The notes below the pieces were generated by a model. That model worked only from the letters and a program-made list of their open reading frames with translations. It did not search any database and was not told the DNA's origin. From a virus, in IMG/VR virus record IMGVR_UViG_3300037189_013673, positions 6,513 through 70,512 of that record: a stretch of DNA of 64,000 nt; one strand, given 5' to 3'. Positions 8,727 to 55,686 of the stretch are shown here, one piece after another (within the stretch, counting starts at the first letter, position 1; every line of letters starts with the position of its first letter). Position numbers and translations under genes: made by a program.

Positions 8727-10268
8727 TTATATACCACCATCTACTATAATCCAATTATTTGGTGCGCCAGTTAATATGTTTTTACCAGCTTGTCCAGCTA
8801 TTGTGTATTTTATACTTCCAAAGTTTACGTTTGTAAGGTTTGGCTGAACAGGTAATAAACTCCAGCCATTGTATATAGCATTTAAGTTTGTCGTAGAGTA
8901 ATTTAAGTTTGTTTTATTTAACATAAAGTTTAAAAAACTTGAAACATTAGATATATTCCAACTTCCTATGTTTTGATTAAAAGCTGTTGCTGAATTAAAC
9001 ATTGATGTCATATCAATAACATTAATAACATTCCAAGAATTTAATGGTTGATTAAATATAGATGCTCCTCTAAACATAAATCCCATATTTGTAGCACTGC
9101 TAACATTCCATGAATTTAATGGTTGATTGAAAGCAGTGTTAAAATTAAAAACACTTCCAAAATCAGTTACGTTGCTAACATTCCATGAATTTAATGGTTG
9201 ATTAAATGAAGTAGCTGTTGCAAACATTCCAAAAATACTTAAAGCACTAATTAAATTCCAAGAATTTAATGGTTGATTAAAATTAGTAGCGTTAGAAAAC
9301 ATAGAGGCAAAAGTTTGAACATTACTTACATTCCAAGAATTAATATTGTAATTAAATGGTGTACTTTGAAACATACTATTCATATTAATAACTGAAGAAA
9401 CATTCCAGTTACTTAAATTATCATTAAAGTTACTATTTGAAAATAAATCATCCATAAAAGTAACATTACTTACATTCCATTGATTAATATTATTAATAGT
9501 AGTTAATGAATTACAACTGTTAAACATAGATGTTAATATAGTCGTTCCTGTTAAATTTAAAACACCTACAACAGAAGATAAGTTTAAATTTTGACAAAAA
9601 GCAAAATAATTACCAGTATTTCCAAGTTTTAAAGTTCCCCAGTTAGAAATTGAAAGTATTTTATTCCTATCTCCAGTAAAATTAAATACAAAACCTGTTA
9701 TTGTACCTGTTATAGTAATAGTATAAGTACCTGCTACTGCATAAGTATGAAGTGTCTGAGCTTGATTCCAAACTGTGATTGTGTTTTGAGTGCCATCTCC
9801 CCAGTTTACTACAAAGTTATAAGTTCCTGAAGAATCTAAAGGTAATTGTACTTGGTTAGCAGCGCTTGAACCTACTGTTGTATTACTAGTATTCCAAGTA
9901 GAAATGAATGCTGTTGAAACCACTTCTAAAGCTCCATATATATAATAACTACTAGAAACATAAATAGTATCGCCGCTATATTGAAATAAACCTTGATTTA
10001 AGCTATTTAAAGCGCTAACTACTGATTGAATATTATTACTACTCAAAGAAACAGAATAATAGACAGGTGTAGTGTTTGATGTATTAGAAATATAAATAGT
10101 AACTAAATAACTTCCGCTATAATTTTCAGTAGTTAAATTCCAACTATACATTCTATCGGAGTTACTTGCTGAATTTATATTTGGTATAGCTTTTAATATC
10201 TCAATAGATTGTGAAAAGCTTGTGTTATTTTTAATTCTTAAAACTATTTGTGTTTCTACTTTTCTCAT
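8727..10268 (-). CDS. PKD + DUF285/BspA-type repeat protein, putative receptor-binding spike
   Basis: VNWGDG...HTY..AGTYTITI (PKD); tandem 25-aa FNQPLNSWNVSNV..M..MF repeats. Confidence 0.85.
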   Translation of the reverse strand: MRKVETQIVLRIKNNTSFSQSIEILKAIPNINSASNSDRMYSWNLTTENYSGSYLVTIYISNTSNTTPVYYSVSLSSNNIQSVVSALNSLNQGLFQYSGDTIYVSSSYYIYGALEVVSTAFISTWNTSNTTVGSSAANQVQLPLDSSGTYNFVVNWGDGTQNTITVWNQAQTLHTYAVAGTYTITITGTITGFVFNFTGDRNKILSISNWGTLKLGNTGNYFAFCQNLNLSSVVGVLNLTGTTILTSMFNSCNSLTTINNINQWNVSNVTFMDDLFSNSNFNDNLSNWNVSSVINMNSMFQSTPFNYNINSWNVSNVQTFASMFSNATNFNQPLNSWNLISALSIFGMFATATSFNQPLNSWNVSNVTDFGSVFNFNTAFNQPLNSWNVSSATNMGFMFRGASIFNQPLNSWNVINVIDMTSMFNSATAFNQNIGSWNISNVSSFLNFMLNKTNLNYSTTNLNAIYNGWSLLPVQPNLTNVNFGSIKYTIAGQAGKNILTGAPNNWIIVDGGI

Positions 10269-10738
10269 AATTTTTTATTTTTTAAAAGTAAATAAACCGT
10301 GAATCCAATTATTGCTACACTAGTCCATCTTAAAACTTGAGGAGAAATATAACTTTTATTTTTAGCTAAATTTACAAAATGCTCACAATTAAAGTTTATA
10401 AAATCATATTTGTAATCTTTAAGTATTTTAACTAATTCATCAATGTCATTAACGTTTAGATTTGTTTTTTCTACACTTACAATATCTCTACCTTTAATCC
10501 ATTTATCTAATTTTTCTTTAGTTGTATTGCCACCTTTTGAATTAACTTTATCAGGGTGATTATGAATTATATAAATATCATCTTCATCTTTTTGTATAAT
10601 TCCATAATGATAAATAATTGGTAAAATATTAGCTTTAGTTTTTATTAAATCTCCAGTTTCTAATTTACTAATTATATAACTTCTATTATCAATTTTTAAT
10701 TTATTTAGTTTATTATTAAAGTTCCTTGTTGTAATCAT
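10265..10738 (-). CDS. LRAT / H-box-NC (permuted NlpC/P60) protein with C-terminal TM
   Basis: GDLI, HYGI, IIH, Y....NCEHFV motifs. Confidence 0.8.
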   Translation of the reverse strand: MITTRNFNNKLNKLKIDNRSYIISKLETGDLIKTKANILPIIYHYGIIQKDEDDIYIIHNHPDKVNSKGGNTTKEKLDKWIKGRDIVSVEKTNLNVNDIDELVKILKDYKYDFINFNCEHFVNLAKNKSYISPQVLRWTSVAIIGFTVYLLLKNKKL

Positions 10739-11165
10739 CTAAAACGTTAAAAAATTCATCTTGAAAAAAATGTGTTGGTGTTACAAAATCTTTATTAGCT
10801 ATCTGAGTTGTAAAAATAACCATCTGTATAACTTCGTTTGGTAAAATAGAAAAACCTAAACCAGTTCTACCATCTAGTACTACATTATCTTCTAAAGGTT
10901 CATAATATGATGCTGTTATAATTTGATAAGGGTCAATTAAAACGTTTTGAGTAAAAGCTTTAATATTACCATTAACATCATAATGATTATATTGATAAGG
11001 TTGAAATAATTGCTCTAATGAACTAGTATTTATATAAGTTTTATTTATTTTATATGAATATCCAGATTGAGAATTGACAATAGTATTGTACTTAGTGTCA
11101 TCTACACTTATTACAGATACTACTCCGGTAGAATAAATATTTATTGTCGGATTGTAAACTCCCAT
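10716..11165 (-). CDS. Divergent paralog of the 233-aa capsid-like proteins (putative minor capsid/vertex protein)
   Basis: Shares TY, Q, DxNGN, IDPYQ and [IL]DGxTxL in order with ORFs 29405/30130. Confidence 0.6.
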   Translation of the reverse strand: MGVYNPTINIYSTGVVSVISVDDTKYNTIVNSQSGYSYKINKTYINTSSLEQLFQPYQYNHYDVNGNIKAFTQNVLIDPYQIITASYYEPLEDNVVLDGRTGLGFSILPNEVIQMVIFTTQIANKDFVTPTHFFQDEFFNVLDDYNKEL

Positions 11166-15060: not shown

Positions 15061-15882
15061 TTATACATAACCAAAATAGTCATAAAACCATTTATAAGTA
15101 TTTTTTATATCTCTTGAGTTTTCAAATCCTAAAACATCTTCAAAATCATCTTCTAACTTTTCAAACTTTGGTCTTAATTGGTGGTCGCCATAAATACCAT
15201 GAAAAACATCATTTTCTTGTGTATGTTGTGTTATATTTACAAAATCATGCTTATCATAATAAGGTAAATCAAAATACTCATACAAGCGCTTAATTTCAAT
15301 TTCTGGATTAGCCATTAAATCTTCATATCTAATAAAAAGTATATTTTTGTCAATCTTCTGGTCTATTACATCTTTTAAACCTTCTATAGAAGTTCCGACA
15401 GGTGTTCCATTTGCCCAAATATCAAGTCTTTTTCTTAAAGTAGTTCCTTGAAGTTGCATTGGGTTTTGAACATGATTTTCTTTATGTGGATTTTTTCTAA
15501 AGTTTTTCTCCATAGAAGCATAAATAGAACGTAAATCTCTAACCATACATACCATTTTAGGTGTATTGTAAAACATATTAGTAAAACGATAGTTAGTAAT
15601 CCATGCTCTGCTTTTATCTAAAACATAAGGTTTTTGTGTAATAGCATTAAAGTAACCATCTATTGATGCTCTACAAAAATGCAAAAAAGCAATATCCATT
15701 AATTTGGCATCTTGCGTTTTAAAGTTTGGAGATTGTTGAAAACTTGCTCTTGCCCCAAGTATTAAATCTAAAAATCCACTTGTAGGTGTGCAATAAAATT
15801 GAGGATTTTGTGCTATAATATTACTCAACAAAGTTGAACCAGCACGAGGTAATGATGAATTAAAGAAATAACTTCTTTCCAT
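15061..15882 (-). CDS. Sulfotransferase
   Basis: SLPRAGSTLL PAPS-binding loop, DKSR.W, VRDLRSI.AS, RYEDL..NP. Confidence 0.85.
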   Translation of the reverse strand: MERSYFFNSSLPRAGSTLLSNIIAQNPQFYCTPTSGFLDLILGARASFQQSPNFKTQDAKLMDIAFLHFCRASIDGYFNAITQKPYVLDKSRAWITNYRFTNMFYNTPKMVCMVRDLRSIYASMEKNFRKNPHKENHVQNPMQLQGTTLRKRLDIWANGTPVGTSIEGLKDVIDQKIDKNILFIRYEDLMANPEIEIKRLYEYFDLPYYDKHDFVNITQHTQENDVFHGIYGDHQLRPKFEKLEDDFEDVLGFENSRDIKNTYKWFYDYFGYV

Positions 15883-23370: not shown

Positions 23371-23832
23371 TTATAATTTTACTGCTATACCATTATTTTC
23401 TTTATAACCTAATAATGTAATTTGTTTTCTTTTTTCCAAAATCATTCTTTGGTTTCTATCACAATTTTTATAATTTTCCATTTCTCCTTTATCAGCACCA
23501 GTAGTAGGTTTAGACGCAAAACTACATGATTCATAAGGATGAGTAGGCGTTTCTTGTAAAGTATCAAATTGACTTTTTAATGTAGTAATTTGAGTTGCTA
23601 AACCTTGTGCTTGAATTTGCTTATTAGTTTCTTCTTGTGTTGATGCTGTCTTAATTTGCGCAGTATCTAAAACTTTATCTGGAGTTGCTCCAGTTACAGT
23701 TCCAGTATTTGAAAGACTACTTGCTAATGTATCAGATAAAGGAATTTTCTTTTTGCTTTTAAAGTAAAAATATGCACCACCACCAACTATTGCTAATGCT
23801 AAAGTACCGAATATTATATTTTTCGCATTCAT
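23371..23832 (-). CDS. N-terminal TM protein, paralog of ORF 23844
   Basis: Near-identical MNAKNIIFGTLALAIVGG..YFYFK and TGATPDKVLDTA. Confidence 0.8.
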   Translation of the reverse strand: MNAKNIIFGTLALAIVGGGAYFYFKSKKKIPLSDTLASSLSNTGTVTGATPDKVLDTAQIKTASTQEETNKQIQAQGLATQITTLKSQFDTLQETPTHPYESCSFASKPTTGADKGEMENYKNCDRNQRMILEKRKQITLLGYKENNGIAVKL

Positions 23833-23843
23833 TTTATTTATTT

Positions 23844-24437
23844 TTAAATAGTAATTTTTGAAATTTCACAATTTGATTCCATATATCCTAATAAAGCTAA
23901 TTCTTTATTTAAAGACGTAATTAATTTTTCTATATTACTGATTTTTCCACTCTTTTGTGATTCTACATCTGCTATATTCCAACAAAAAGTACTTGTATAA
24001 GCATACTTACTACAAAAATCTGAATTACTCATATTCTTAAAAAGATTCTTTTGCGTTTTTGCTTCACAAATTTTATTTGCCAATTCTTTTGCTTTAGTAA
24101 TTTGCTTTGCTTTAGCTTCTAATTCTGCTTGTGTTGGCTCATTTGACAATGGTTTGTTATATACTGGCGCAGTATCTAAAACTTTATCTGGAGTTGCTCC
24201 AGTTCCAGTTCCACTACCAGTTCCAGTTCCACTACCAGTTCCAGTTCCACTACCAGTTCCAGTTCCACTACCAGTTCCAGTTCCAGTTCCACTACCAGTT
24301 CCACTACCAGTGTTTGTTAAACTACTTACTAATTTATCAGCTAAAGGACTTTTCTTTTTATTTTTAAAATAGAAATATGCACTACCACCAACTATTGCTA
24401 ATGCTAAAGTACCAAATATTATATTTTTTGCGTTCAT
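23844..24437 (-). CDS. N-terminal TM protein with (GT/GS)n linker, paralog of ORF 23371
   Basis: Same N-terminus; Gly-Thr/Ser repeat; Cys-containing C-terminal domain. Confidence 0.8.
   Translation of the reverse strand: MNAKNIIFGTLALAIVGGSAYFYFKNKKKSPLADKLVSSLTNTGSGTGSGTGTGTGSGTGTGSGTGTGSGTGTGSGTGTGATPDKVLDTAPVYNKPLSNEPTQAELEAKAKQITKAKELANKICEAKTQKNLFKNMSNSDFCSKYAYTSTFCWNIADVESQKSGKISNIEKLITSLNKELALLGYMESNCEISKITI
24199..24311. repeat. 6-bp-unit tandem repeat (ccagtt/ccacta) encoding a Gly-Thr/Gly-Ser linker
   Basis: Directly visible. Confidence 0.9.
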
Positions 24438-24854: not shown

Positions 24855-25121
24855 TTATAAAACAGTAGGTGTAATTGTTTTAACTGCGTTTTGACTTTTA
24901 TTTTTAATTTCTGCTAATAATCCTTTTAAAGAATCAATAACTTGTGATGCTCCAGATAATGTATTTCCAGTATTTGCTGGAGCTGGCGATTGAGTATTAT
25001 CTTCTACTACCATCGGTGGAGTAGTATTCATCTTATTAGACTTGTTTTTAGACATATACATATATCCTCCAATTAATAATAATGCTCCTCCTAAAACGTA
25101 AAGTGTTGTGTGTTTTTTCAT
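24855..25121 (-). CDS. Small N-terminal TM protein
   Basis: LYVLGGALLLIGGYMYM. Confidence 0.75.
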   Translation of the reverse strand: MKKHTTLYVLGGALLLIGGYMYMSKNKSNKMNTTPPMVVEDNTQSPAPANTGNTLSGASQVIDSLKGLLAEIKNKSQNAVKTITPTVL

Positions 25122-25122
25122 T

Positions 25123-25461
25123 TTATAAATCTTTTAATGTGATTGTTTTAACTCCTTTTGCTTTAAATAAAGCATTTTCTGTAACAGTACCAAATATTCC
25201 ATCAATACCATCTTTATTATCACCAAAAGCGCCTAGGTTTGCTTTATACTTAGTTTTAAGTATTCTTTGCAACTCACTTACTTCTGGTTCTTGCATACCT
25301 TTTTTAAGTTCTAATGAATAATCAAGAAAACTTTCGCCACCTTGACTATCTAAAACTGGTTTATTCAAACTTTTTAACCATTTGCTTGTTCCATATACTA
25401 AAGCAAAAAGCAATATTGCTCCTATAAAGTATGTGCTTGTGTGTTTTGGGTTTAATTTCAT
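25123..25461 (-). CDS. Membrane-anchored peptidoglycan-binding (PG_binding_1-like) protein
   Basis: LKKG....V..LQ..L ... IDGIFG..TE.AL. Confidence 0.8.
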   Translation of the reverse strand: MKLNPKHTSTYFIGAILLFALVYGTSKWLKSLNKPVLDSQGGESFLDYSLELKKGMQEPEVSELQRILKTKYKANLGAFGDNKDGIDGIFGTVTENALFKAKGVKTITLKDL

Positions 25462-25539
25462 AATTATCTAATTTTTTCAAGATAGGCAATACACTTCTTT
25501 TGTGTTCCAAAGTCCTTATGTAATTGACTTAAATTCAAT

Positions 25540-25650
25540 TTACTTGCTGTTTTTATAAATCATATAAAAACTTGCTAAAACACCTACAATACCAAGTGTC
25601 ATTACAATTTTATGTTTTTCCCAAGCGTTTTTAATCTTTTCTTTTGTCAT
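25540..25650 (-). CDS. 36-aa TM microprotein (not in ORF track)
   Basis: MTKEKIKNAWEKHKIVMTLGIVGVLASFYMIYKNSK*. Confidence 0.6.
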   Translation of the reverse strand: MTKEKIKNAWEKHKIVMTLGIVGVLASFYMIYKNSK

Positions 25651-25720
25651 TTTTTAAATTTTTAAATTAATCCCAATATTCTATTTTTTTAAATATTCCA
25701 TTTTCTTTTTTGCCATAATT

Positions 25721-26506
25721 TTATCGTATTACCATTTTATTTTTCTCAAAATTTCTTATAAAATTGTCTATTCTTTGGAATCTTTTTCCATTTGCTTCAC
25801 TTGGAGCATCCATAAAAACTTTATAGAATGCTTCATATCCTTCAATTCTAGGATAGCCTAATCCTAAATAGATTAGTAAACCATTAATATCTGCTTCAGA
25901 TTCATCATGAATATCATCATTTACATAATAATGACTAAATTCATGACATAAAATAGCAAATCTCATTGGTATAGTATATTCATCAATGTATTTTTTAGCA
26001 ACTTGTATTCTACCTGTGCTTTGATTAATTCTAGCAGGAGTAGTCAATGCTCTACCATCTTTATTTGTAATGACATCTAGATACTCAATTATAAACTCTC
26101 CATTATCGGATTGATATGATTTACCTGTTTCTAAATACGACGCGTTAAAACAAAACCTTTGAGCAAAATCAACAAATTCAGAAATACTTTTATTAGAAAT
26201 ATCTACAACATCCATTCTTTTTTCTAATGGTTGTTTTTGACAAGATATAACTGTAATATTTTTTTCTTGTTCTTTAGGTAAATTACCTATTCTATCATCA
26301 TAAACTGAAAGAATTATAGAATCAGAAGTTAGAGGCATTCTTATATAAAAAATCTCTTCATTTCTAACTGCTTTAGTTCTATTAGTAAATATGATTTTAT
26401 TTTTAGTTTCATCACAAATCTTAATCCTTACAGTTGTAGGTGTTTTTACTACTATTTTTAAGCACAAACACATTTCATCATATCTAGTTTGTATTCTAAA
26501 ATTCAT
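25721..26506 (-). CDS. Zincin-like metallopeptidase
   Basis: AILCHEFSHYY (HExxH) followed by E.EAD. Confidence 0.7.
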   Translation of the reverse strand: MNFRIQTRYDEMCLCLKIVVKTPTTVRIKICDETKNKIIFTNRTKAVRNEEIFYIRMPLTSDSIILSVYDDRIGNLPKEQEKNITVISCQKQPLEKRMDVVDISNKSISEFVDFAQRFCFNASYLETGKSYQSDNGEFIIEYLDVITNKDGRALTTPARINQSTGRIQVAKKYIDEYTIPMRFAILCHEFSHYYVNDDIHDESEADINGLLIYLGLGYPRIEGYEAFYKVFMDAPSEANGKRFQRIDNFIRNFEKNKMVIR

Positions 26507-26507
26507 G

Positions 26508-26855
26508 TTATTTCTTTTTAGTGTAAAACTTATATGCTATAACTCCTGATATTAATAAGACACTTGATACTAAAATCCATTTATTTAGTCCAAGAAAATT
26601 ATTTTTATTTATAGGATTATCATTTGCATTTTTATTAATACCTAATATTTTCTCGAACTTACCAGTATTTTTTATGCCTAAAGAATCTTCTAAACGAGTA
26701 GTATCTAATATATCATTTTCTCCAGTAACGTTAAGTAAATGTTCTTTAGGTGGAATAGTACCTTTCATCGTTTCTCTTTCCAACCAATCTTTAAAAGTTA
26801 ATGTAGTTCCACTTTCTTTCCAAAGTTGATTTTTACTTTTAGCAAAATTACTCAT
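26508..26855 (-). CDS. C-terminal TM protein
   Basis: FLGLNKWILVSSVLLISGVIAYKF. Confidence 0.75.
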   Translation of the reverse strand: MSNFAKSKNQLWKESGTTLTFKDWLERETMKGTIPPKEHLLNVTGENDILDTTRLEDSLGIKNTGKFEKILGINKNANDNPINKNNFLGLNKWILVSSVLLISGVIAYKFYTKKK

Positions 26856-26858
26856 AAG

Positions 26859-27020
26859 TTATATTTTAATTTCTGGTAGTTTTTTTGAATCAATTTTTAA
26901 ATCTTCTTTCGTCATTGATTCAACATGTTTTTTAGGTAAATAATACCCTTTGTATAAATATACCAATGCTCCAACTCCGATTGAAAAAATTGCAATACCT
27001 AATATTTTTTTTGGTTTCAT
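26859..27020 (-). CDS. Small N-terminal TM protein (start probably 27020 rather than 27050)
   Basis: MKPKKILGIAIFSIGVGALVYLY; upstream ORF ends at 27026. Confidence 0.65.
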   Translation of the reverse strand: MKPKKILGIAIFSIGVGALVYLYKGYYLPKKHVESMTKEDLKIDSKKLPEIKI

Positions 27021-27025
27021 GATAA

Positions 27026-27178
27026 TTATTTTTCTTGACTTTCTTTCCAAGCTTTACCAGCAATCCAAACAGTAGCAAAAAGAATAAATGACCAAGCACC
27101 TACCTCTAATAAATAATTTTTGGTTGCACTCTTATATTTAGTAGGTTGGTCACCTTCATTATAAATAAAATTTTCCAT
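27026..27178 (-). CDS. 50-aa TM microprotein (not in ORF track)
   Basis: MENFIYNEGD...WSFILFATVWIAGKAWKESQEK*. Confidence 0.65.
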   Translation of the reverse strand: MENFIYNEGDQPTKYKSATKNYLLEVGAWSFILFATVWIAGKAWKESQEK

Positions 27179-27210
27179 TTTTAATTTTTTATAAAATTAA
27201 GAATAATTTT

Positions 27211-27318
27211 TTAATTACTTTGACTTTTTTTCCAGCCTTTTCCAGCTACATAAACAACTCCGTAAAGAACAGCTAATGATACAACTACTCCTAGTATTTT
27301 TCCTAAATTATTTTTCAT
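27211..27318 (-). CDS. 35-aa TM microprotein, paralog of ORF 27026 (not in ORF track)
   Basis: MKNNLGKILGVVVSLAVLYGVVYVAGKGWKKSQSN*. Confidence 0.65.
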   Translation of the reverse strand: MKNNLGKILGVVVSLAVLYGVVYVAGKGWKKSQSN

Positions 27319-27353
27319 TTTGATTTATTTTTAAAAGTTAAACGTTTGTTTAA

Positions 27354-27482
27354 TTACGAAGCGTCAGCAGGTAAAAGTCCAGCTTTTTCTTTGTTTTCAT
27401 GTTTCATATTAAATAAGTAATAAGCAATACCTGCTAATACTAAAACTCCTAAAACCATTTTTGTTTTTTTCGTCAACATCAT
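27354..27482 (-). CDS. 42-aa TM microprotein (not in ORF track)
   Basis: MMLTKKTKMVLGVLVLAGIAYYLFNMKHENKKKAGLLPADAS*. Confidence 0.65.
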   Translation of the reverse strand: MMLTKKTKMVLGVLVLAGIAYYLFNMKHENKEKAGLLPADAS

Positions 27483-27497
27483 TTTTTCTATTTTTTT

Positions 27498-27722
27498 TTA
27501 TGTTTTTCTTACTATAATACCAGTACCTACGCCTACTACTATAGCTCCTATTAATCCACTAATGTAGATATTTTGTTTTTTATAATAACCAATCATAAGA
27601 CCTAAAACAAGACCAGTTACTGCTCCGTTTATAGATGCTTTTGTAGTAAGCATCAAAATATCTCTTTTATCTTTGCTTACTATATCTTTAACTTCTTGTA
27701 AGTAATCTGTATTCTTGTCCAT
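27498..27722 (-). CDS. Small 2-TM glycine-zipper protein
   Basis: GAVTGLVLGLMIG and GLIGAIVVGVGTG. Confidence 0.75.
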   Translation of the reverse strand: MDKNTDYLQEVKDIVSKDKRDILMLTTKASINGAVTGLVLGLMIGYYKKQNIYISGLIGAIVVGVGTGIIVRKT

Positions 27723-27723
27723 A

Positions 27724-28272
27724 TTATTTTCTATTTCTTGTTACTAAAAATATAGTTAATCCTAAAATTAAAACACCACCAATTCCTAAAGCAATATATA
27801 AAGTTTTACTTCCACCTGGCTTTGCTTGTGCATTATTATAACCAGCTTGTGCATTTATAATTGCTTGTTTAGTTTTTTCTTGTTCAATAGCTAATGCGCT
27901 TGCATTGCCATCTCTTATAGCATCTGCTTGTGCTTGTGCTGCTTTTAACGCGTTTTGACTGCCGATAATTCCAGTTATACCACCAAATAAAGTAGTTCCT
28001 ATATTTGTATAGTCTCCACCAGTTAAATTAGAATAACCATCCATATTTAAGTTACCACCTAATTTAGAATTATTTTTTAAGTAAAAGTCAATAAAACTTC
28101 TTCTAAATGATTCTGAAGTATTTATACCTTGAAAAACTCCTTTTGTTAACTCTTCGCTATTTGATGGATTAGCATTTATTAAAACGCCATTATTATTAAG
28201 CATATCTGCAATTTCTTTTGGAAATAAACCAACAGAATATGCTACTAAACTAATTAGTTTTTGCTCGTTCAT
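27724..28272 (-). CDS. Putative virion membrane protein with C-terminal TM
   Basis: LNMDGYSNLTGG motif; LYIALGIGGVLILGLTIFL; related to ORF 28272. Confidence 0.75.
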   Translation of the reverse strand: MNEQKLISLVAYSVGLFPKEIADMLNNNGVLINANPSNSEELTKGVFQGINTSESFRRSFIDFYLKNNSKLGGNLNMDGYSNLTGGDYTNIGTTLFGGITGIIGSQNALKAAQAQADAIRDGNASALAIEQEKTKQAIINAQAGYNNAQAKPGGSKTLYIALGIGGVLILGLTIFLVTRNRK

Positions 28273-28895
28273 TACGCTTTCTTTTTATTTGCTTTATTAA
28301 CTAAATAAACTATCAATCCAATTACAGAAACTCCAACAATACCTAATATAACATATAAAGTAGTGTTAGAACCCGATGCTGGTACTTGTGGTGTGTTATT
28401 CATAGGATTACCACCTGCTTCAACTACTTTTACACTTGCAGCGGCTAATTCTCTTTTAGTTTTATTATCATCTAATTGTAAATATCCATTAAATCCTGTT
28501 TGCAATAGATTTAAACCTGTAGTTAACCATTGTCCACTACCTTTAGTTTTTGTATCTTTACTAGGAGTTGTAGGTGGAGTAGTTGTAGGTGGAGTAGTTG
28601 TTGAAGAAGCCCAATCTATTTTCATTGGGTCATAAAAAATTCCTCCAGCATTTGAATAACCATCCATACTTGCATAAAGACTTGTAACAACATCTTTATC
28701 TAATAACAACTTCATGAAAGCATTATAAAATGATTTTGAAGTTTTAGCTAGATTTGTAACCTGTACAGCTATACTCATATCTGAATCAGTAGAGTTTACA
28801 ACGATACCATGCTTTAATAATAAAGCAACTATTTCATTTCTTTTTAAACTTATGACTTGCAATAAACCTTGCGCACCAAATGTTGTATTTGCCAT
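28272..28895 (-). CDS. Putative virion membrane protein with C-terminal TM
   Basis: ASMDGYSNAGG motif; LYVILGIVGVSVIGLIVYL. Confidence 0.75.
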   Translation of the reverse strand: MANTTFGAQGLLQVISLKRNEIVALLLKHGIVVNSTDSDMSIAVQVTNLAKTSKSFYNAFMKLLLDKDVVTSLYASMDGYSNAGGIFYDPMKIDWASSTTTPPTTTPPTTPSKDTKTKGSGQWLTTGLNLLQTGFNGYLQLDDNKTKRELAAASVKVVEAGGNPMNNTPQVPASGSNTTLYVILGIVGVSVIGLIVYLVNKANKKKA

Positions 28896-28901
28896 TTTTT
28901 T

Positions 28902-29312
28902 TTATTTTTTTAAAATTAATGCACTAACTATAAACAACGTAGCAACTACTAATATGACATTAGTTTGATTTGCTATTAAATGCGTATTGTTTTGTGGTTG
29001 ATTAGTTGAATTACTTGCTAAATTATCTTCACCACTTGCATTCATATAATTATTGTGTTGTTCTTTAGCTTTACAGCTACTACATCCACAAGTACTTGAG
29101 CTAGGTGATAAACTTACATTGTACTCTACTATAATATCTTTATCTGGATGAATATCCATTACTTTTTTTAAAGCTGGTTCTCCTATAGTACTTACTAATT
29201 CTGATAAGCTTCGACCTAAATCTCTTCTATCTGTAATTTCATATCCGAAAGACTCTATTAATTGTTGAGTACCTCTAGGATTATTATCTGCAACGTATTG
29301 ATATACTGACAT
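28902..29312 (-). CDS. Putative virion protein with CGCxxC motif and C-terminal TM
   Basis: HPDKD, CGCSSC, YMNASG. Confidence 0.75.
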   Translation of the reverse strand: MSVYQYVADNNPRGTQQLIESFGYEITDRRDLGRSLSELVSTIGEPALKKVMDIHPDKDIIVEYNVSLSPSSSTCGCSSCKAKEQHNNYMNASGEDNLASNSTNQPQNNTHLIANQTNVILVVATLFIVSALILKK

Positions 29313-29326
29313 AATTGTTTTTTTAT

Positions 29327-29360
29327 AAAAAAAGGCAAGATGAAAAATTCATACTTGCCT
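29327..29360 (-). terminator. Intrinsic terminator directly downstream of the capsid-like gene pair
   Basis: aggcaag...cttgcct stem with A-run at 29327-29333. Confidence 0.75.
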
Positions 29361-29404
29361 CTTTCAAATTATACAAAATTTGGTTTTACCTTATAAAGAT
29401 AAAA

Positions 29405-30106
29405 TTACGCTTTGATTTGGATTGTTTGTCCATTAGTAACATTTGGTGAACCAAATTGTTTACTTACAGCTGAACCTCCTAATGCACGAGCAAGATTTAC
29501 GTTATCTGCTGGGTAGAAGTAGAATTTAGTTGTAGAAGTAGCACTTACGTTTTGTATTACTAATTTAGTGAAACCATCAATTCTAAACGGAGTCTTCAAA
29601 GCAACTACGTTAGTTTGTTGCTGATAAGGGTCAATGATTGGAATTAACGATTTTTGTGCTGTGTTACCATTAGCATCTCTAGTGTTAACAGCTACAGAAG
29701 ATAAAATCTGAGCAGCAACAGTAGATTGCATATATGTTAAACCAACTGAGAAAACGTTGTTTTGGAATTGCCAAAGCATTTCTCTATATGTTACACCTGC
29801 TATACCAGATGAAATAGTAATTGAACCAATTACTAAGTTTCCTGAAGTATTAAAGTTAGTGTTGTTGATATATTGGTATGAACCTAATATATCAAAGTTT
29901 GATACATCTGCTCCTGAAGTAGAAGTCACTACTACGATGTATGGTTGTGATTGTTGAACTGATTGCATTCCGCCCATGTTACCATCAGCACCAAAGAAAT
30001 CATCTCCTGTGAATGATAAATCTTGGTCAATAAATCCGTCTGCATTTGAGAAAGATTCATTTGCACGATTCTGTGCGTCCGCTAAATATTTTCTTACGTT
30101 TGACAT
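29405..30106 (-). CDS. Putative major capsid protein, copy B (beta-rich, single jelly-roll candidate)
   Basis: No TM, alternating beta pattern, high-expression codons (TTC, AAC, TAC, CGT), own terminator, near packaging ATPase; fold is inference. Confidence 0.6.
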   Translation of the reverse strand: MSNVRKYLADAQNRANESFSNADGFIDQDLSFTGDDFFGADGNMGGMQSVQQSQPYIVVVTSTSGADVSNFDILGSYQYINNTNFNTSGNLVIGSITISSGIAGVTYREMLWQFQNNVFSVGLTYMQSTVAAQILSSVAVNTRDANGNTAQKSLIPIIDPYQQQTNVVALKTPFRIDGFTKLVIQNVSATSTTKFYFYPADNVNLARALGGSAVSKQFGSPNVTNGQTIQIKA

Positions 30107-30129
30107 TATATTAATTTTTTATTTTAAAC

Positions 30130-30831
30130 TTACGCTTTAATTTTTATTGTTTGACCATTGGTCACATTTGGAGAACCAAATTGTTTACTAACCGCAGAAC
30201 CACCTAATGCGCGAGCAAGATTGATATTATCAGCAGGGTAGAAATAGAATTTACTTGTTGAACTTGCAGTAACAGTTTGGATTATTAATTTTGTAAAACC
30301 ATCTATTCTGTAAGGTGTTTTCAAAGCAACTACGTTAGTTTGTTGCTGATAAGGGTCGATAATTGGAATTAAAGCTTTAGTTGCAATATTACCATTAGCA
30401 TCTCTAGTATTAACCGAAACGGTTGATAAGATTTGAGCTGCAGCTGTAGATTGTAAATACGTTAAACCAACTGAGAACACATTGTTTTGGAATTGCCATA
30501 ACATTTCAGAATAAGAAACGTTTGAAATACCAGAACTAATTGTTATTGAACCAATTACTAAACTACCTGCGGCATTAAAACCTGAATTGTTTAAGTATTG
30601 GTAAGAACCTAAAATATCGAAATTAGAAACGTCTGCTCCTGAAGTAGATGTAACTGTAACAATATAAGGTTGTGATTGCTGAATTGACTGACCGCCCATG
30701 CCATTTCCATTTGCTCCAAAGAAGTCATCTCCGGTGAATGAGAAATTTTGGTCTATAAAACCATCTGCATTCGAAAATGAATTTTTTACACGGCTTTTAG
30801 CGTCAGATAAATATCTTCTTACATTTGACAT
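30130..30831 (-). CDS. Putative major capsid protein, copy A
   Basis: Same length as, and highly similar end to end to, ORF 29405. Confidence 0.6.
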   Translation of the reverse strand: MSNVRRYLSDAKSRVKNSFSNADGFIDQNFSFTGDDFFGANGNGMGGQSIQQSQPYIVTVTSTSGADVSNFDILGSYQYLNNSGFNAAGSLVIGSITISSGISNVSYSEMLWQFQNNVFSVGLTYLQSTAAAQILSTVSVNTRDANGNIATKALIPIIDPYQQQTNVVALKTPYRIDGFTKLIIQTVTASSTSKFYFYPADNINLARALGGSAVSKQFGSPNVTNGQTIKIKA

Positions 30832-30865
30832 TTTTTCTTGTTATTAATTTTTAAATAATTTTTTT

Positions 30866-30994
30866 CTATTTAACTAAATCCAAAGGTACCTCTGTTTTTG
30901 ACTTCAAATACTTTCTTTCAATTGCATTTACCAAAAACATTGCTACCATTACATAAGCTACTGTTTTTCCAAAAGTGATTAATTCGTTTTTCAT
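30866..30994 (-). CDS. 42-aa TM microprotein upstream of capsid genes (not in ORF track)
   Basis: MKNELITFGKTVAYVMVAMFLVNAIERKYLKSKTEVPLDLVK*. Confidence 0.6.
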   Translation of the reverse strand: MKNELITFGKTVAYVMVAMFLVNAIERKYLKSKTEVPLDLVK

Positions 30995-31080
30995 TACACA
31001 ATGATATTTTTAATGACATTATATGTTTAAAATAAAACATATTATTATAGATAATTATATACACATATAATAATCTTTTT

Positions 31081-31088
31081 CAAAAGTA
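31081..31088 (-). promoter_or_regulatory. Candidate -7 promoter (TACTTTTG) for the capsid operon
   Basis: TAnnTTTG in AT-rich intergenic gap. Confidence 0.45.
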
Positions 31089-31160
31089 ATTCAAAAAAAT
31101 ATTAATTAAATTTATTTTTAAAAAAATAAACAGAACTAAGATTTGTAATTATATTTCTTT

Positions 31161-31580
31161 TTATTTATTTAATACTAAATAAGTTGTAGAACATATTCCT
31201 AATATAGATAAAACTTTATAAATAAAAGAAGTTGCTTTTTGACCTTTTAATTCTTTTTGTAAAGATTTTGATATTTCTTCTTGTGATTTAAACATTTCAT
31301 CTTTTTTAGATATAATTAAATTTAGGTCATATTCTTTTTCTTCAAGCTTATTAATTATGCTATCTTTTAGCTTTACTTTATATTCTGTAAGCATAAGATT
31401 GCTTTTAACTAAAACCAACTCTGATTTGCACTCATCTCCTGATACTAAATCAATAGCTATCCTTCTTGCAATAGTTGTATCTATACAAACTAAATTACTT
31501 TTTTGAATATCTGTCTGTGAAATACTTCTCCCACATACCAGAATCATAATGCTTAAAATTATCAATCTGACTTTTTTCAT
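31161..31580 (-). CDS. Exported coiled-coil protein, spanin-like lysis accessory
   Basis: Signal peptide, coil, C-terminal hydrophobic segment; overlaps ORF 31495; follows endolysin. Confidence 0.5.
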   Translation of the reverse strand: MKKVRLIILSIMILVCGRSISQTDIQKSNLVCIDTTIARRIAIDLVSGDECKSELVLVKSNLMLTEYKVKLKDSIINKLEEKEYDLNLIISKKDEMFKSQEEISKSLQKELKGQKATSFIYKVLSILGICSTTYLVLNK

Positions 31581-32326: not shown

Positions 32327-32555
32327 TTGATTCTGATTTTAATAATTCATCATTACTATTTGTAAAATAGTTTTTTATTAAATAAACTCCACCTGAAAGT
32401 AAACCTACTTTACCCATATTTAAAAAATCTGTTATTGCTGGAAATACTCCACTAACAACACTTGTACTTAATAAACCTACAATAGTAGTTCCAATAGTCA
32501 TAAAAGCGCCTTTTGATAAGTCTTTTATATTTAATTTTTTGTATTTGCTTTTCAT
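32319..32555 (-). CDS. Putative holin
   Basis: 78 aa with two hydrophobic segments, overlapping endolysin start. Confidence 0.6.
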   Translation of the reverse strand: MKSKYKKLNIKDLSKGAFMTIGTTIVGLLSTSVVSGVFPAITDFLNMGKVGLLSGGVYLIKNYFTNSNDELLKSESNG

Positions 32556-33376
32556 TAATCTAAATAGTATTTAATAATTCTCTCTTTATGTTGCTTAACA
32601 GCAGTTTCTGGCGTATGAACTTTTGTACCTTTACCTAAATCTCTTTTTTGCAACATTGGAGAAATTAATTTTTTATAATTTTCAGAAATATATTGTTCAA
32701 CAATACCTTCGAATTTTTTTCTATCTACTCCTTTAATTTTTTCGTCTTCAATATCTACATAACAGAAAAACCTTGGATTATCATAATTATGATATTCATT
32801 ATTCACATAATTTTCTACTAATTTTAGCAACTCGTATTTGTCTTCAAACTTATTTCTATGCTTATCTACTGAATCTGTATTTTTATGAAACCTAATCCAA
32901 CTTAAGTTTTGCCATATCTTAGGTGAAACTCTACCTACTGACTGAAAATGCAAAATAATATCAGTATCGGTATGTCTATTAGTGCAAATAGCACCAACAA
33001 GGTCATTAGGCAAATAATCAGAAATATATCTATTAATATCTTCGATAAGTAATAAACCGCCTCTATAATCATTTAAAATTTTAAATAAAGTTTCTTGAAT
33101 TTCACTAATTGTCATTCTAACTCCATTTTCATGGAATGGTCTAATTCTTCTAGCTTCAATCCTTGGATGCGATGAAAATCTCATAATATCAGATAGTTTT
33201 AATGCTTTTATATCTTCAAACTCATCATTGACATCTAATATTAATGCTCTACGTGCTGGTATTCCTTTAGCTGGATTACCAAGTATGTATTGTTTTATCA
33301 TTTTATTAGTAGTATAAGTCTTTCCGCATCCTTTCCTTCCTACTGCTACTCCTAATTTTGGTTCTCTTTCTTCCAT
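32555..33376 (-). CDS. FtsK/HerA-superfamily (A32/P9-like) genome packaging ATPase
   Basis: N-terminal Walker A GRKGCGKT, Walker B LLLIED, NRH Arg finger, hhhFQS sensor; 273 aa with no nuclease domain. Confidence 0.75.
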   Translation of the reverse strand: MEEREPKLGVAVGRKGCGKTYTTNKMIKQYILGNPAKGIPARRALILDVNDEFEDIKALKLSDIMRFSSHPRIEARRIRPFHENGVRMTISEIQETLFKILNDYRGGLLLIEDINRYISDYLPNDLVGAICTNRHTDTDIILHFQSVGRVSPKIWQNLSWIRFHKNTDSVDKHRNKFEDKYELLKLVENYVNNEYHNYDNPRFFCYVDIEDEKIKGVDRKKFEGIVEQYISENYKKLISPMLQKRDLGKGTKVHTPETAVKQHKERIIKYYLD

Positions 33377-35013: not shown

Positions 35014-35460
35014 TTATAATCCCCAAACTAACATTAAAGCATCTCTTTGCTCTTGATTAGTTCTTTTATCAAATCCAGTTATCTGTTGAAAAAATTCAGA
35101 ATTAGTTTTAGACCTTGTTGGTTTTATTTGCTTATAATCTAATCCTAGATATTCACACATTTCACAAATCTTTTTTGCTGTTTCATGATTAGCACCTATT
35201 CTTTCACCTATTTTTGAATTATAAGCATTAGATAAAGAATTATTTTGATGTCTATTACCTCCGTTTAAAAATCCACATTCTATATAGACTTCAGTAGGTA
35301 TATTGTCTTCTTTAGAGTTTTCTCTAATGTTTTTTAATTTTTCATATAATTCAAAAAAAGTTAAATTATATAAATTAAATACTTTACCACATCTAATAGC
35401 ACAACCTGATTTAATAGTATCTGGGTCAATACCTACAAATACTTTTTTCTTAGATTCCAT
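35014..35460 (-). CDS. RuvC-like (RNase H fold) resolvase
   Basis: FVGIDPD...SG, VYIE, C-terminal EQRDA. Confidence 0.7.
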   Translation of the reverse strand: MESKKKVFVGIDPDTIKSGCAIRCGKVFNLYNLTFFELYEKLKNIRENSKEDNIPTEVYIECGFLNGGNRHQNNSLSNAYNSKIGERIGANHETAKKICEMCEYLGLDYKQIKPTRSKTNSEFFQQITGFDKRTNQEQRDALMLVWGL

Positions 35461-36094
35461 ATTTATTTGTAAAAGCTTTATGTTTTAATATCTCTTTCCC
35501 GATTTGTTTTGCAAAATCATTATCTGTAGTATAATGTAATCCTAAATGGATTCTACTTATAGCTACATCTTCGGCCATGGATTTACAGAATTGAAATTCG
35601 TTTGGAAATTTATTAGCAATTACATTTAACACGACATAAGCTTCTAATGCATGTCCTGAAGGATATGATGGAGTATCTGCTGAAAAACTATTAAAAGGAA
35701 ACATTGCTAATTTGTAATATTGAGCAATCTGTTTAGGTCTTGGTCTTTGATAAAAGTATTTTAATTTTATCAATAATGGTTTGATGTCATCAATAATATC
35801 CAAAGTAAGATGCTCAACATCAATGCCTTTCTGTTTAAAAGCAGATATTATTGCTTGACTTAAAGACCTATCATAAGATTTGAATCTGGTTAAATACAAA
35901 GAGTTTTCTTGTTCTAATAACATTTCTGTCATATCAACCAATTCATTTAATTCGTCTTTAACCAGTTCAGAATCATTTTCAGGAAATACTTCTCCTTTAA
36001 GTTTTATAAATAAATCATCTACAATAGAAACTTGTTCAAGAAATTTCTTTTGTTCGATTGTAGGGTTTCCGTATGTTATGTTGTTTAAGTCCAA
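35450..36094 (-). CDS. PAP2/haloperoxidase-superfamily phosphatase
   Basis: K....RPRP, PSYPSGH, SR..LGLHY..D. Confidence 0.85.
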   Translation of the reverse strand: MDLNNITYGNPTIEQKKFLEQVSIVDDLFIKLKGEVFPENDSELVKDELNELVDMTEMLLEQENSLYLTRFKSYDRSLSQAIISAFKQKGIDVEHLTLDIIDDIKPLLIKLKYFYQRPRPKQIAQYYKLAMFPFNSFSADTPSYPSGHALEAYVVLNVIANKFPNEFQFCKSMAEDVAISRIHLGLHYTTDNDFAKQIGKEILKHKAFTNKYGI

Positions 36095-39488: not shown

Positions 39489-39734
39489 TTATCTAGAAAG
39501 CTTACCACCATAAGGACAAGGATTATCTCCATATCCACCGGTATATATTGTTGTACTACCGTCAGAGTTTTTTCTTTTACATACAGAAGTATTTCCAGAT
39601 AAATTAGAATAACCACTCATATTTGAAGAATCACTTGATGAGCTTTTCTTTTTATTAGCTGCGATTAATGATAAAGTTATCGGTATTGCCAAAACAACTA
39701 ATGCTCCGTAAATTAAAAAATTTTTGTTTTTCAT
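39489..39734 (-). CDS. Small N-terminal TM protein with NMSGYSNLSG motif and Cys pair
   Basis: Motif shared with ORFs 27724/28272. Confidence 0.7.
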   Translation of the reverse strand: MKNKNFLIYGALVVLAIPITLSLIAANKKKSSSSDSSNMSGYSNLSGNTSVCKRKNSDGSTTIYTGGYGDNPCPYGGKLSR

Positions 39735-48596: not shown

Positions 48597-49106
48597 TTAT
48601 TCTTGAGTACTTAATGAAATATCTGCGTTTTGTTTATTTTTCAAAACACGTAAAGCTTCTTCTTTTGTTAATTTTTTGACAATAACTTTAGTACCTGCTA
48701 CTTCAGTAACAATACCATAATCATCTTTAACTCTAATAATATCGCCTACAACAGGTGGTATTTTTACCTTTTTTGGAGGTGGTTGATTAGGTTGTGGATT
48801 ATTAACTTGAGGAGGCGTTTCTTTAAGTTCTTTATAAATCATATCTTCAAAAAATAAAATAGCATCTTCAAAGTTTTCTTTGATTGTTTTATTTTTTGTA
48901 AAAAATTCTTCATAAATAGTATAAACTCCATTTACTTCTTTAAATACTTTGTAAGGATTAGTGTTTACTTGACCTACGTAAGCATTTGGGTTGAACTTTA
49001 CCTCTATGTTCATACCTGTAGTTGTATTAGTTAACCTATAAATTACTTCATCAGGGCTAATTACTTCTGTGCTTTCTGTTAATTTACCTTCTTTATATAC
49101 GAACAT
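48597..49106 (-). CDS. Hypothetical protein with Pro-rich linker and possible KOW/SH3-like end
   Basis: VGDIIRV...YGIVTEV. Confidence 0.7.
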   Translation of the reverse strand: MFVYKEGKLTESTEVISPDEVIYRLTNTTTGMNIEVKFNPNAYVGQVNTNPYKVFKEVNGVYTIYEEFFTKNKTIKENFEDAILFFEDMIYKELKETPPQVNNPQPNQPPPKKVKIPPVVGDIIRVKDDYGIVTEVAGTKVIVKKLTKEEALRVLKNKQNADISLSTQE

Positions 49107-54399: not shown

Positions 54400-55686
54400 T
54401 TATTTTGCTAATTTATCTATGATAGTTTTAAATTGTCTTGCTATGTCTTTCCATTTTAATTTTGAAACTTTATTGTAGGCATTTTCTATTTTTACTTTAA
54501 CCATATCTTGAAGTTCTTGTTCATCATTTTTTAAATTATAAGCAATTTCCATTAAAGTTTTTACTTCTCCACCTGAACAAACATATCTAACTTTTTCATA
54601 ATCTTTAACGAATACCATTGGTGTAGAGTAAAGAAAGTTTAATGTATTTTCACCGTTATTAGTTATTTCTGTTATAGAAGTGTGTTTAGGGCAAATTACA
54701 AGAGTTTTAGTTGCCATTGCTTCAGTTATTGTTAAACCCCAGCCTTCGGCTGTAGTAGTAGTTATAAAGCAATCAAAAGAATTATAAATTTTATTTAATC
54801 TACTAATATCAAATCCTTTATTTTCATTATAGTCTTTTGGTGTAAGTACATCTATTCCAAATCTAAGTCCAAGTCTTTCGCATAGTCTTTGAATATTAAT
54901 ACCTGCAGTATCTAAAGGATTACAATGTAAATATAAAATAGAATGTACAGGTTCTTTAGCGGTATTTTTAAAATACGCAAATCCTAAAATAAGAGTTGCT
55001 AAATCTTTTCTAGCTGAATTTCTGTTTACTGTACCAAAAATATAAGCATCTTTATTTTCTTCTCCATAAATACTAGCTTTTATTTTGGTTTTTTCATCTT
55101 CTTCAAGAGGAAAAAAATCAGAAGTGTTACAACCATGAGGTATTACTTTTACTTTTTTAAATATTGTAGGAGAAACCATTCTTTTAATGACATCTTTAGC
55201 ATATTCAGTGTAAGTTATAACTTCATCAAATAAATTTAAAACTTGTAAATCACTAACTCTAGGTTCAGAATCAATAGGAAAATAAACCATTGATTTAAAA
55301 GAAGGCTTGTTATTTTTTTTCTTTTCTACTTTTACATTTTTAAAATGTTCTGCAAAATCATTAAATACTTCAATATCATTTAAACAGAAAACTACATCCC
55401 AATCATTATTATATAATAATCTTAAAAATTGTAATCTACAATAAAAATCTCCTTTAGGGTCTTTTTCTTCTACTGTTGTAGCCGCAGGTATAACTAAAAC
55501 GTTTTCTTTATAATGATAAGGTTTTTCAGCTGTATCATTAATTGCAAATATTACTGTTTTAAGTTTTGAATCATTTGACCATTCATCTACTAATTCTTTT
55601 GATACTTTAGCAAATCCAGTATCACAGCCAAAATCAGCATACATTAATAAGTTTTTTTCTTTAATCTCGTTTTTTATAACTTTCAT
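54400..55686 (-). CDS. GT-B glycosyltransferase (GT4-like)
   Basis: TGFAKV, IPHG, NRN..RKD, EGWGLT.TEAMA. Confidence 0.88.
   Translation of the reverse strand: MKVIKNEIKEKNLLMYADFGCDTGFAKVSKELVDEWSNDSKLKTVIFAINDTAEKPYHYKENVLVIPAATTVEEKDPKGDFYCRLQFLRLLYNNDWDVVFCLNDIEVFNDFAEHFKNVKVEKKKNNKPSFKSMVYFPIDSEPRVSDLQVLNLFDEVITYTEYAKDVIKRMVSPTIFKKVKVIPHGCNTSDFFPLEEDEKTKIKASIYGEENKDAYIFGTVNRNSARKDLATLILGFAYFKNTAKEPVHSILYLHCNPLDTAGINIQRLCERLGLRFGIDVLTPKDYNENKGFDISRLNKIYNSFDCFITTTTAEGWGLTITEAMATKTLVICPKHTSITEITNNGENTLNFLYSTPMVFVKDYEKVRYVCSGGEVKTLMEIAYNLKNDEQELQDMVKVKIENAYNKVSKLKWKDIARQFKTIIDKLAK

Follow-up and report, generated by a model that had tools for sequence, protein, structure and literature searches.

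The DNA analysed here, a stretch of 64,000 nucleotides hereinafter called the window, comprises bases 6513-70512 of a single 70,512-bp viral contig (IMG/VR record IMGVR_UViG_3300037189_013673). Positions 25721-30831 of the window hold a block of genes that encodes, in the order of transcription, two tandem paralogues of 233 amino acids (aa) each that are candidates for the capsid protein, three membrane proteins (open reading frames (ORFs) 28902, 28272 and 27724), several small membrane ORFs, a further membrane protein (ORF 26508) and a protein with a zincin-like domain (ORF 25721-26506, hereinafter the zincin). A short linear motif recurs in these proteins and in one small protein encoded elsewhere in the window (ORF 39489), and it is probably a shared cutting or docking signal for particle building. 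The genes concerned are the following:

30130-30831, minus strand: capsid-like copy 1, 233 aa, with a predicted helix (residues 2-17), disordered arm with the motifs (about residues 20-50) and β-sandwich core.
29405-30106, minus strand: capsid-like copy 2, a tandem paralogue 83% identical to copy 1.
28902-29312, minus strand: C-terminally anchored membrane protein, 136 aa, with an N-domain, a CxC..C cluster, YMNASG, a spacer and a transmembrane segment.
28272-28895, minus strand: C-terminally anchored membrane protein, 207 aa, whose N-domain is followed by a doubled motif and then by a Thr/Pro-rich linker.
27724-28272, minus strand: paralogue of the 28272 protein, 182 aa, with LNMDG-YSNLTG at the junction of its two parts.
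26508-26855, minus strand: C-terminally anchored membrane protein, 115 aa, containing LLNVTG; the zincin ORF starts 1 nt after its stop.
25721-26506, minus strand: two-domain protein, 261 aa, with an N-terminal β-sandwich (about residues 1-93) and a C-terminal zincin-like domain.
39489-39734, minus strand: small protein, 81 aa, with an N-terminal transmembrane segment, NMSG-YSNLSG and a Cys-containing tail.

A preliminary description of the block had listed the recurring peptides, and each of them is present on the minus strand in the ORF to which it had been assigned. Specifically, the arm of capsid-like copy 1 carries FSNADG (30760-30777), FSFTG (30730-30744) and FFGANG (30706-30723). The second copy carries FSNADG at 30035-30052 and FFGADG at 29981-29998, and FSFTG and LSFTG both lie within the two capsid-like ORFs. 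Among the membrane proteins, YMNASG occupies 29031-29048 (ORF 28902), YASMDG-YSNAGG 28641-28676 (ORF 28272), LNMDG-YSNLTG 28018-28050 (ORF 27724), LLNVTG 26721-26738 (ORF 26508) and NMSG-YSNLSG 39594-39623 (ORF 39489). The HExxH protein that had been placed at the end of the block is also borne out, with HEFSH at 25931-25945 of the zincin ORF.

In its loose form, [YFL]x[NSG]xxG, the motif is at background level in this genome. The 118 ORFs of the 70.5-kb genome (21,955 aa) contain 62 matches, compared with 52.4±6.6 after shuffling, and 17 of 200 shuffles reach 62. A tighter pattern, [YF][SM]N..G, occurs 6 times in the same ORFs, compared with 1.07±0.98 after shuffling, and none of 200 shuffles reaches 6; this pattern was picked post hoc, and its count includes paralogues such as the two capsid-like ORFs. 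Outside transmembrane segments, the strict form is found 9 times in the 1,698 aa of the block versus 14 times in the 20,257 aa encoded elsewhere. Enrichment is absent for the loose pattern of the preliminary description and strong for a sharper form that is conserved in relatives; it is these relatives, rather than counts in a single genome, that provide the decisive support for the motif.

Relatives were collected as ten IMG/VR loci seeded with the capsid-like protein and 62 loci seeded with the zincin. An acidic residue two positions ahead of the aromatic residue is common to four families of carriers, giving the sharp consensus [ED]-x-[FY]-x-[NGS]-[AVMFL]-x-G, which is a genuine short linear motif. 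The N-terminal arms of the capsid-like family were examined with the window protein and 120 representatives of 205-275 aa chosen from the best 150 family members. The 121 arms contain 76 matches to [FYWLM]xNxxG, about sevenfold more than the 10.7±2.8 obtained when each arm is shuffled, with a significance that is overstated because the shuffles ignore the kinship of the sequences. The pattern is present in 58 of the arms, 17 of which have two or more copies. The cores of the same proteins contain 40 matches compared with 21.0±4.6. Around the Gly of the arm motif, Phe or Tyr is enriched at position -5, Asn at -3 and Ala at -2, and cores show none of these preferences. The arms vary widely in sequence and length, and the copies differ in place and number. 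Among the distinct arms of zincin-bearing relatives, 35 of 45 have at least one strict copy and 28 of 45 at least two; nine of the remaining ten have the Gly variant FIGVDG/FFGADG, and a clear copy is lacking in the tenth, which is also the most distant (L067).

The motif is also conserved in membrane-anchored carriers. The 2,191 distinct ORFs of the relatives were clustered, and motif counts per family were compared with shuffles. Of the 52 distinct proteins in the 28902 family, 50 carry the motif (55 hits versus 5.2 expected), as do 53 of 63 in the capsid-like family (97 versus 21.4), 45 of 94 in the 28272/27724 family (68 versus 27.3) and 21 of 50 in the 26508 family (21 versus 6.2), where LLNVTG is the weakest instance. 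It is found in at least four further unrelated membrane-anchored families of the relatives, the copies counted lying outside transmembrane segments. Among further families, all 26 members of one with an N-terminal transmembrane segment, the motif and a Cys-rich tail carry it, as do 18 of 23 members of another C-anchored family and 8 of 10 members of one more. The scores of some additional families were discounted, since Gly-rich transmembrane helices or fibre repeats match the pattern. No enrichment is observed for the zincin family (6 versus 6.1), the ATPase family (13 versus 10.5) or the 33494 family (0 versus 8 expected). The N-domains of the 28902 and 28272 families have no detectable relation to each other (hhalign probability 0.1%), and some hexapeptides, FFGADG and FLGADG among them, are exactly the same in the capsid arm and in the 28902 family. 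Even within one genome, the third position of the motif can be Asn, Gly or Ser. One motif is therefore shared by many unrelated carriers, in which it occupies non-transmembrane and apparently flexible segments.

The small ORF 39489 has no homologue in the related loci examined, and its architecture, an N-terminal transmembrane segment followed by the motif and a Cys tail, is the same as that of the unrelated family of relatives mentioned above. One related locus (L003:14343-16324) encodes six tandem paralogues with an N-terminal transmembrane segment, a motif of the type NSEG-FFNAGG and a Cys-rich tail. Motif copies can themselves be in tandem: L018 has four that recur every 16 residues, L029 has three, and distant capsid arms have as many as four. 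The 27724-type protein is encoded by two adjoining genes in many relatives (L001, L003, L004, L006-L008, L013, L017, L020-L022, L025 and L031), one for a soluble protein of about 70 aa and one for a transmembrane-anchored protein of about 100 aa. The split falls at about the position of the motif, which is found at the end of none of 13 N-terminal halves and is kept in only 5 of 25 C-terminal halves, these five starting with M-x(2-3)-YNNxxG. In fused forms, the motif is at the junction in 31 of 56.

The AlphaFold2 model of capsid-like copy 1 has a mean predicted local distance difference test score (pLDDT) of 87.1, with values above 95 for the core and below 50 for residues 20-40. The predicted shape is a basic N-terminal helix (residues 2-17), a disordered arm that bears the motifs and an all-β sandwich. 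Structural matches of the core are weak and comprise picornavirus-type capsid proteins and C1q-like domains (E-values 5e-4 to 1e-2, TM-scores 0.2-0.3), a sequence-profile search of the PDB with the capsid-like protein returned nothing, and a language-model atlas gave uninformative scores of 0.76 for the core. Fold type, conservation, duplication and position together suggest that these proteins are the capsid proteins. The preliminary description had proposed a protease site or a docking signal; the premise common to both, one linker motif in unrelated structural proteins next to a conserved HExxH protein, is upheld, with the word capsid used in the sense just given.

The capsid-like family comprises 488 clusters at 50% identity. 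The tandem duplication is seen in this genome, while each related locus has one full-length-type gene; L001/L071 and L067 encode further divergent capsid-like paralogues. One family member, P0117, has a minimal arm of 31 residues and still keeps YSNFSG. Two others, P0007 (397 aa) and P0099 (411 aa), each contain two complete tandem capsid-like domains. Single and fused double jelly rolls thus occur naturally in the same family, a finding of relevance to the origin of double jelly-roll capsid proteins.

The model of the zincin has a pLDDT of 91.8 and a predicted template modelling score of 0.90. HEFSH lies within helix 179-195, and residues E202, E204, A205 and D206 of the second site, DESEAD (25889-25906), are at the start of helix 202-215. 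In gluzincins, the Glu of the following helix in such an ExxAD-like signature is the third zinc ligand. HEFSH and ESEAD, with H188, E189, H192, E202, E204, A205 and D206, are unchanged throughout a set of 34 homologues (55-89% identity). Foldseek matches of the zincin domain are weak, namely BepA (6sar and 6ait; E-value 9e-3, probability 0.99) and 3c37 (E-value 2.6e-2, probability 0.97), with TM-scores of about 0.33, and a PDB sequence-profile search found nothing. Peptidase_M48 is assigned to 15-25% of the members among language-model neighbours, which is a lead only, and none of 917 homologues is informatively named. It is plausible that the zincin is M48-like with its predicted catalytic signature intact. 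A predicted complex of the zincin, capsid arm 1-60 and zinc scored 0.28 against a mark of 0.32, a value obtained without controls that counts neither for nor against binding. A distant homologue (26% identity) in a Flavobacteriaceae-labelled metagenome-assembled genome (MAG) is followed by a 287-aa protein with an N-terminal MFGADG (L081:2322-3969); this single case could be chance.

The zincin has a fixed place in the module. The order in related loci is capsid-like gene, 28902 family, 28272/27724 family, 27498 family and, further on, 26508 family and zincin. In 60 of 61 zincin-seeded loci, a capsid-like gene is found 3-8 kb upstream of the zincin, and the remaining locus has only 2.9 kb of flank. 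Conversely, 8 of the 9 capsid-seeded loci (L001-L009) contain the zincin, and the ninth, L002, ends 2.2 kb past the capsid gene. In 28 of 51 distinct loci, the gene just upstream of the zincin belongs to the 26508 family, and in 23 of these 28 the distance between the two is -4 to +3 nt. Single distant capsid-family proteins used as queries retrieved nothing from viral or metagenome contigs, and a degenerate DNA pattern for a conserved heptapeptide retrieved only the near clade and chance matches, with 18 of 54 loci having no capsid-family ORF.

We tentatively favour the reading in which the motif is a processing site of the zincin, a reading drawn from sequence patterns that should be taken as possible rather than probable. 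According to this reading, one common virus-encoded reader would recognise the motif both in the capsid arm, with its two conserved copies, and in the linkers of the membrane proteins. The reader would be the M48-like zincin, brought to the viral membrane patch with the translationally coupled, tail-anchored product of ORF 26508, and it would cut at the motif while the particle is being assembled. The basic N-terminal helix and the acidic arm would thereby be separated from the capsid core, and soluble domains would be released from their membrane anchors. The cut would fall before the hydrophobic fourth residue, which would suit the S1' pocket of a gluzincin; gluzincins favour a hydrophobic P1' residue. 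Four observations make cleavage attractive. A conserved, apparently active protease is encoded in the same operon; the conserved motif positions are small residues with a hydrophobic residue at the would-be P1'; the motif sits between separable parts (helix and arm versus core, soluble domain versus anchor, anchor versus Cys-rich tail); and the split 27724-type proteins mostly lose the motif, while the fused ones often keep it at the junction.

Several observations weigh against cleavage by the zincin. All Foldseek matches of the zincin have E-values above 1e-3, and the protein has no Pfam hit above threshold, SprT-like (E-value 0.013) and the NCBIfam SprT model (E-value 0.018) falling short. 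Its β-sandwich resembles carbohydrate-binding modules in Foldseek, which would be equally compatible with a role in entry. Tandem copies are more in keeping with binding by avidity than with cutting, the 5 of 25 C-terminal halves that begin with the motif have almost nothing to cut off, and 25 of 56 fused 27724-type forms have no strict motif. Depending on the membrane topology of the carriers, the enzyme and all the motifs may not be in one compartment. Finally, the co-occurrence of motif and zincin covers one clade only and not all 488 clusters, the distant motif-bearing members coming without genomic context.

A close second to cleavage by the zincin, and nearly as credible, is an uncut docking or incorporation signal, in which the motif inserts into a common receptor such as a groove of the capsid core or an assembly factor. 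The arms would then lace neighbouring capsomers, the membrane proteins would be tethered or sorted by the same contact, and the zincin would serve some other purpose. Interlocking of N-terminal arms beneath the shell is common among jelly-roll capsid proteins, and maturation by cleavage is not known from PRD1-type or other tailless membrane phages studied so far. The copy number of one to four, often in tandem and with the regular period seen in L018, the retention of the motif at the extreme N-terminus of a fifth of the C-terminal halves while the flanks diverge, and its retention in the short arm of P0117 are all consistent with docking. The interchange of Asn, Gly and Ser within one genome would likewise be explained if one tolerant reader serves all carriers. 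However, the conserved small residues (Asn, Gly or Ser, then Ala and Gly) would be more typical of protease sites, and the loss of the motif from all 13 N-terminal halves and from 20 of 25 C-terminal halves is odd for an incorporation signal. Docking also leaves the conserved protease of the same operon unexplained, and its receptor is only hypothetical. Targeting followed by cutting would reconcile the tandem and N-terminal copies with the conserved zincin, in the style of T4, where gp21 removes short N-terminal targeting peptides from internal proteins; this combination overlaps with the two readings above and would need both of their unproven steps, and as a share beyond them we consider it unlikely.

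Two further explanations have a very small share each. Asparagine chemistry, meaning self-cleavage in the style of nodaviruses, tetraviruses and picornaviruses, an isopeptide bond or a modification, would fit the commonest form of the motif, in which Asn is followed by Ala or a hydrophobic residue, as well as the weak matches of the capsid-like core to picornavirus-type capsid proteins; nodaviruses cleave at Asn-Ala. It is most improbable, since Gly or Ser replaces Asn in many instances, including whole clades, since a fixed catalytic environment is not to be expected in disordered repeated segments and in unrelated membrane proteins, and since N-x-S/T sequons are not obeyed (NADG, NAGG, NANG). 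Equally improbable is that the motif has no common function and is a by-product of shared ancestry or of linkers rich in Asn, Ala, Asp, Gly and Phe. The background level of the loose pattern and the paralogy within the capsid pair and the 27724/28272 pair would agree with it. Against it stand the loss of the signal upon shuffling within arms (even with kinship ignored), the position preferences found in arms and not in cores, and the same 8-residue pattern in families without detectable homology.

Other candidates were rejected. An N-glycosylation sequon is ruled out by the three sequences just given and by the Gly and Ser replacements, and an EF-hand-like calcium loop by the lack of Asp at loop position 1. 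The motif is too distant from transmembrane segments to be a signal-peptidase A-x-G site, and it also occurs in a protein without any such segment. Tyrosine sulfation by the phage sulfotransferase does not agree with Phe being as common as Tyr, and a clade-wide switch from Asn to Gly over all carriers does not agree with the coexistence of both forms in single genomes.

Comparison with known systems defines what this one could be. In adenoviruses, adenain acts on several unrelated virion proteins at a short Gly-containing motif with a hydrophobic residue a few positions upstream, and its gene lies inside the morphogenetic module of a jelly-roll-capsid virus, comparable with the zincin gene near the candidate jelly-roll capsid genes; adenain, however, is a cysteine protease of eukaryotic viruses, whereas here a candidate zincin is encoded by a phage and cleavage is proposed. 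In T4 (gp21) and HK97 (delta domain), a phage-encoded protease acts at a short consensus to shorten the major capsid protein in its N-terminal part and to process many other head proteins, and in T4 short N-terminal peptides both target proteins and are removed. These enzymes are serine or herpesvirus-type proteases, and the tailed phages that encode them have HK97-fold capsids and lack a membrane. Pfam and PHROGs revealed no homology to the T4 or HK97 proteases among the proteins scanned, and the zincin has no homology to adenain or prohead serine proteases in Pfam, PHROGs or Foldseek. The system could only be analogous to adenovirus or T4 maturation, and not a member of those protease families.

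The M48 zincins HtpX, BepA and Ste24 resemble the zincin in that HExxH lies on one helix and a conserved Glu on the next. M48-type zincins act at membranes. The ORF 25721 protein differs in having no transmembrane segment, no Pfam M48 hit and an extra N-terminal β-sandwich, and would be at most a distant M48 relative. Reminiscent of PRD1-type and sphaerolipovirus-type phages are the capsid candidate of predicted jelly-roll type, which has an arm at its N-terminal end, the small P-loop ATPase encoded close by, the many small membrane proteins and the shorter paralogue of the capsid candidate. The genome differs from them in encoding one type of single-domain capsid-like protein, in its size (70.5 kb compared with 10-30 kb for such phages) and in having no sequence match or strong fold match to them. 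Polintons, virophages, adenoviruses and giant viruses have in common a morphogenetic module that includes a maturation protease (PMC4405056, PMC6260650). The part that extends to tectiviruses according to excerpts of the same articles consists of capsid proteins, ATPase and polymerase, a protease not being listed there (PMC4405056, PMC6260650).

The genome has about 27% G+C, with tightly packed genes mostly on the minus strand, and no tRNA genes were found in the window. The window DNA, the capsid-like protein and the zincin have no match in 50,697 phage records. Scans of 30 proteins with Pfam and 20 with PHROGs, which leave about 80 smaller ORFs outside, revealed no portal, HK97 capsid or tail proteins; weak rows were 'terminase' (E-value 4.3e-4) and 'major head protein' (E-value 0.004). 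The following features surround the block:

32555-33376, minus strand: P-loop ATPase, 273 aa, candidate genome-packaging enzyme with a visible Walker A motif and weak matches.
10716-11165, minus strand: third, divergent capsid-like paralogue, 149 aa, with no N-terminal arm or motif (family-profile hmmsearch, E-value 5.8e-13).
8727-10268: DUF285-repeat protein, on the basis of Pfam.
35450-36094: PAP2-type phosphatase.
15061-15882: sulfotransferase.
54400-55686: glycosyltransferase.
49093-53490: polyvalent-type protein, 1,465 aa, with DUF5824 and ADP-ribosyltransferase (ART-PolyVal) domains.

The ATPase is 59-88% identical to the copies of relatives, and its database matches are weak only (AAA_22, E-value 0.0014, and DUF87/HerA, E-value 0.017, in Pfam; phrog_2666, E-value 4.3e-4); a PDB sequence-profile search and NCBIfam yielded nothing for it. 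The third capsid-like paralogue belongs to a separate gene block, adjoins the DUF285-repeat protein and is possibly a vertex protein. The phosphatase, the sulfotransferase and the glycosyltransferase may modify lipids or the envelope of the particle or host. Pfam also identifies three cell-wall hydrolases (M15, glucosaminidase and GH108), RecT, a PD-(D/E)XK nuclease and a MoxR-like ATPase in the surroundings. The polyvalent-type protein contains two motif-like strings, YVNANG and YINING. At 23371-24437, two adjoining paralogues have an identical N-terminal transmembrane segment, and one of them has a long (T/S)G repeat (TGSGTGSGTG...). A promoter and terminator scan of 25000-31400 was at or below shuffle level.

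Related viruses are represented by contigs of 35-102 kb. The MAGs that contain relatives of the zincin have labels that point mainly to Bacteroidota (among them Sediminibacterium, Lishizhenia and Flavobacteriaceae), and some of the other labels may be binning errors. A literature search with a limited set of terms found nothing on this lineage or motif. Based on the single-domain jelly-roll-like capsid candidate, the small P-loop ATPase, the dozens of small transmembrane proteins and the lack of a match in phage records, the genome and its relatives look like a new lineage of large tailless, membrane-rich phages.

The widest reading, that a zincin-driven targeting-and-cleavage code operates in building a single-jelly-roll shell in tailless membrane-rich phages of about 35-100 kb with Bacteroidota-like hosts, is rather doubtful. 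If true, prokaryotic jelly-roll viruses would gain their first example of a maturation-protease system, one of an origin independent from the cysteine proteases of adenoviruses, polintons and giant viruses and from the serine proteases of tailed phages. Cutting of the motif by the zincin would mean that site-coded proteolytic maturation had emerged on three occasions with three catalytic types, the third of them in a membrane-containing virus of bacteria. A docking peptide would instead provide a simple, testable rule for the coupling of the internal membrane and its proteins to the capsid shell. On both readings, the motif can serve to find virion proteins by sequence in an otherwise unannotated lineage in which nearly all of the proteins concerned are called 'hypothetical'.

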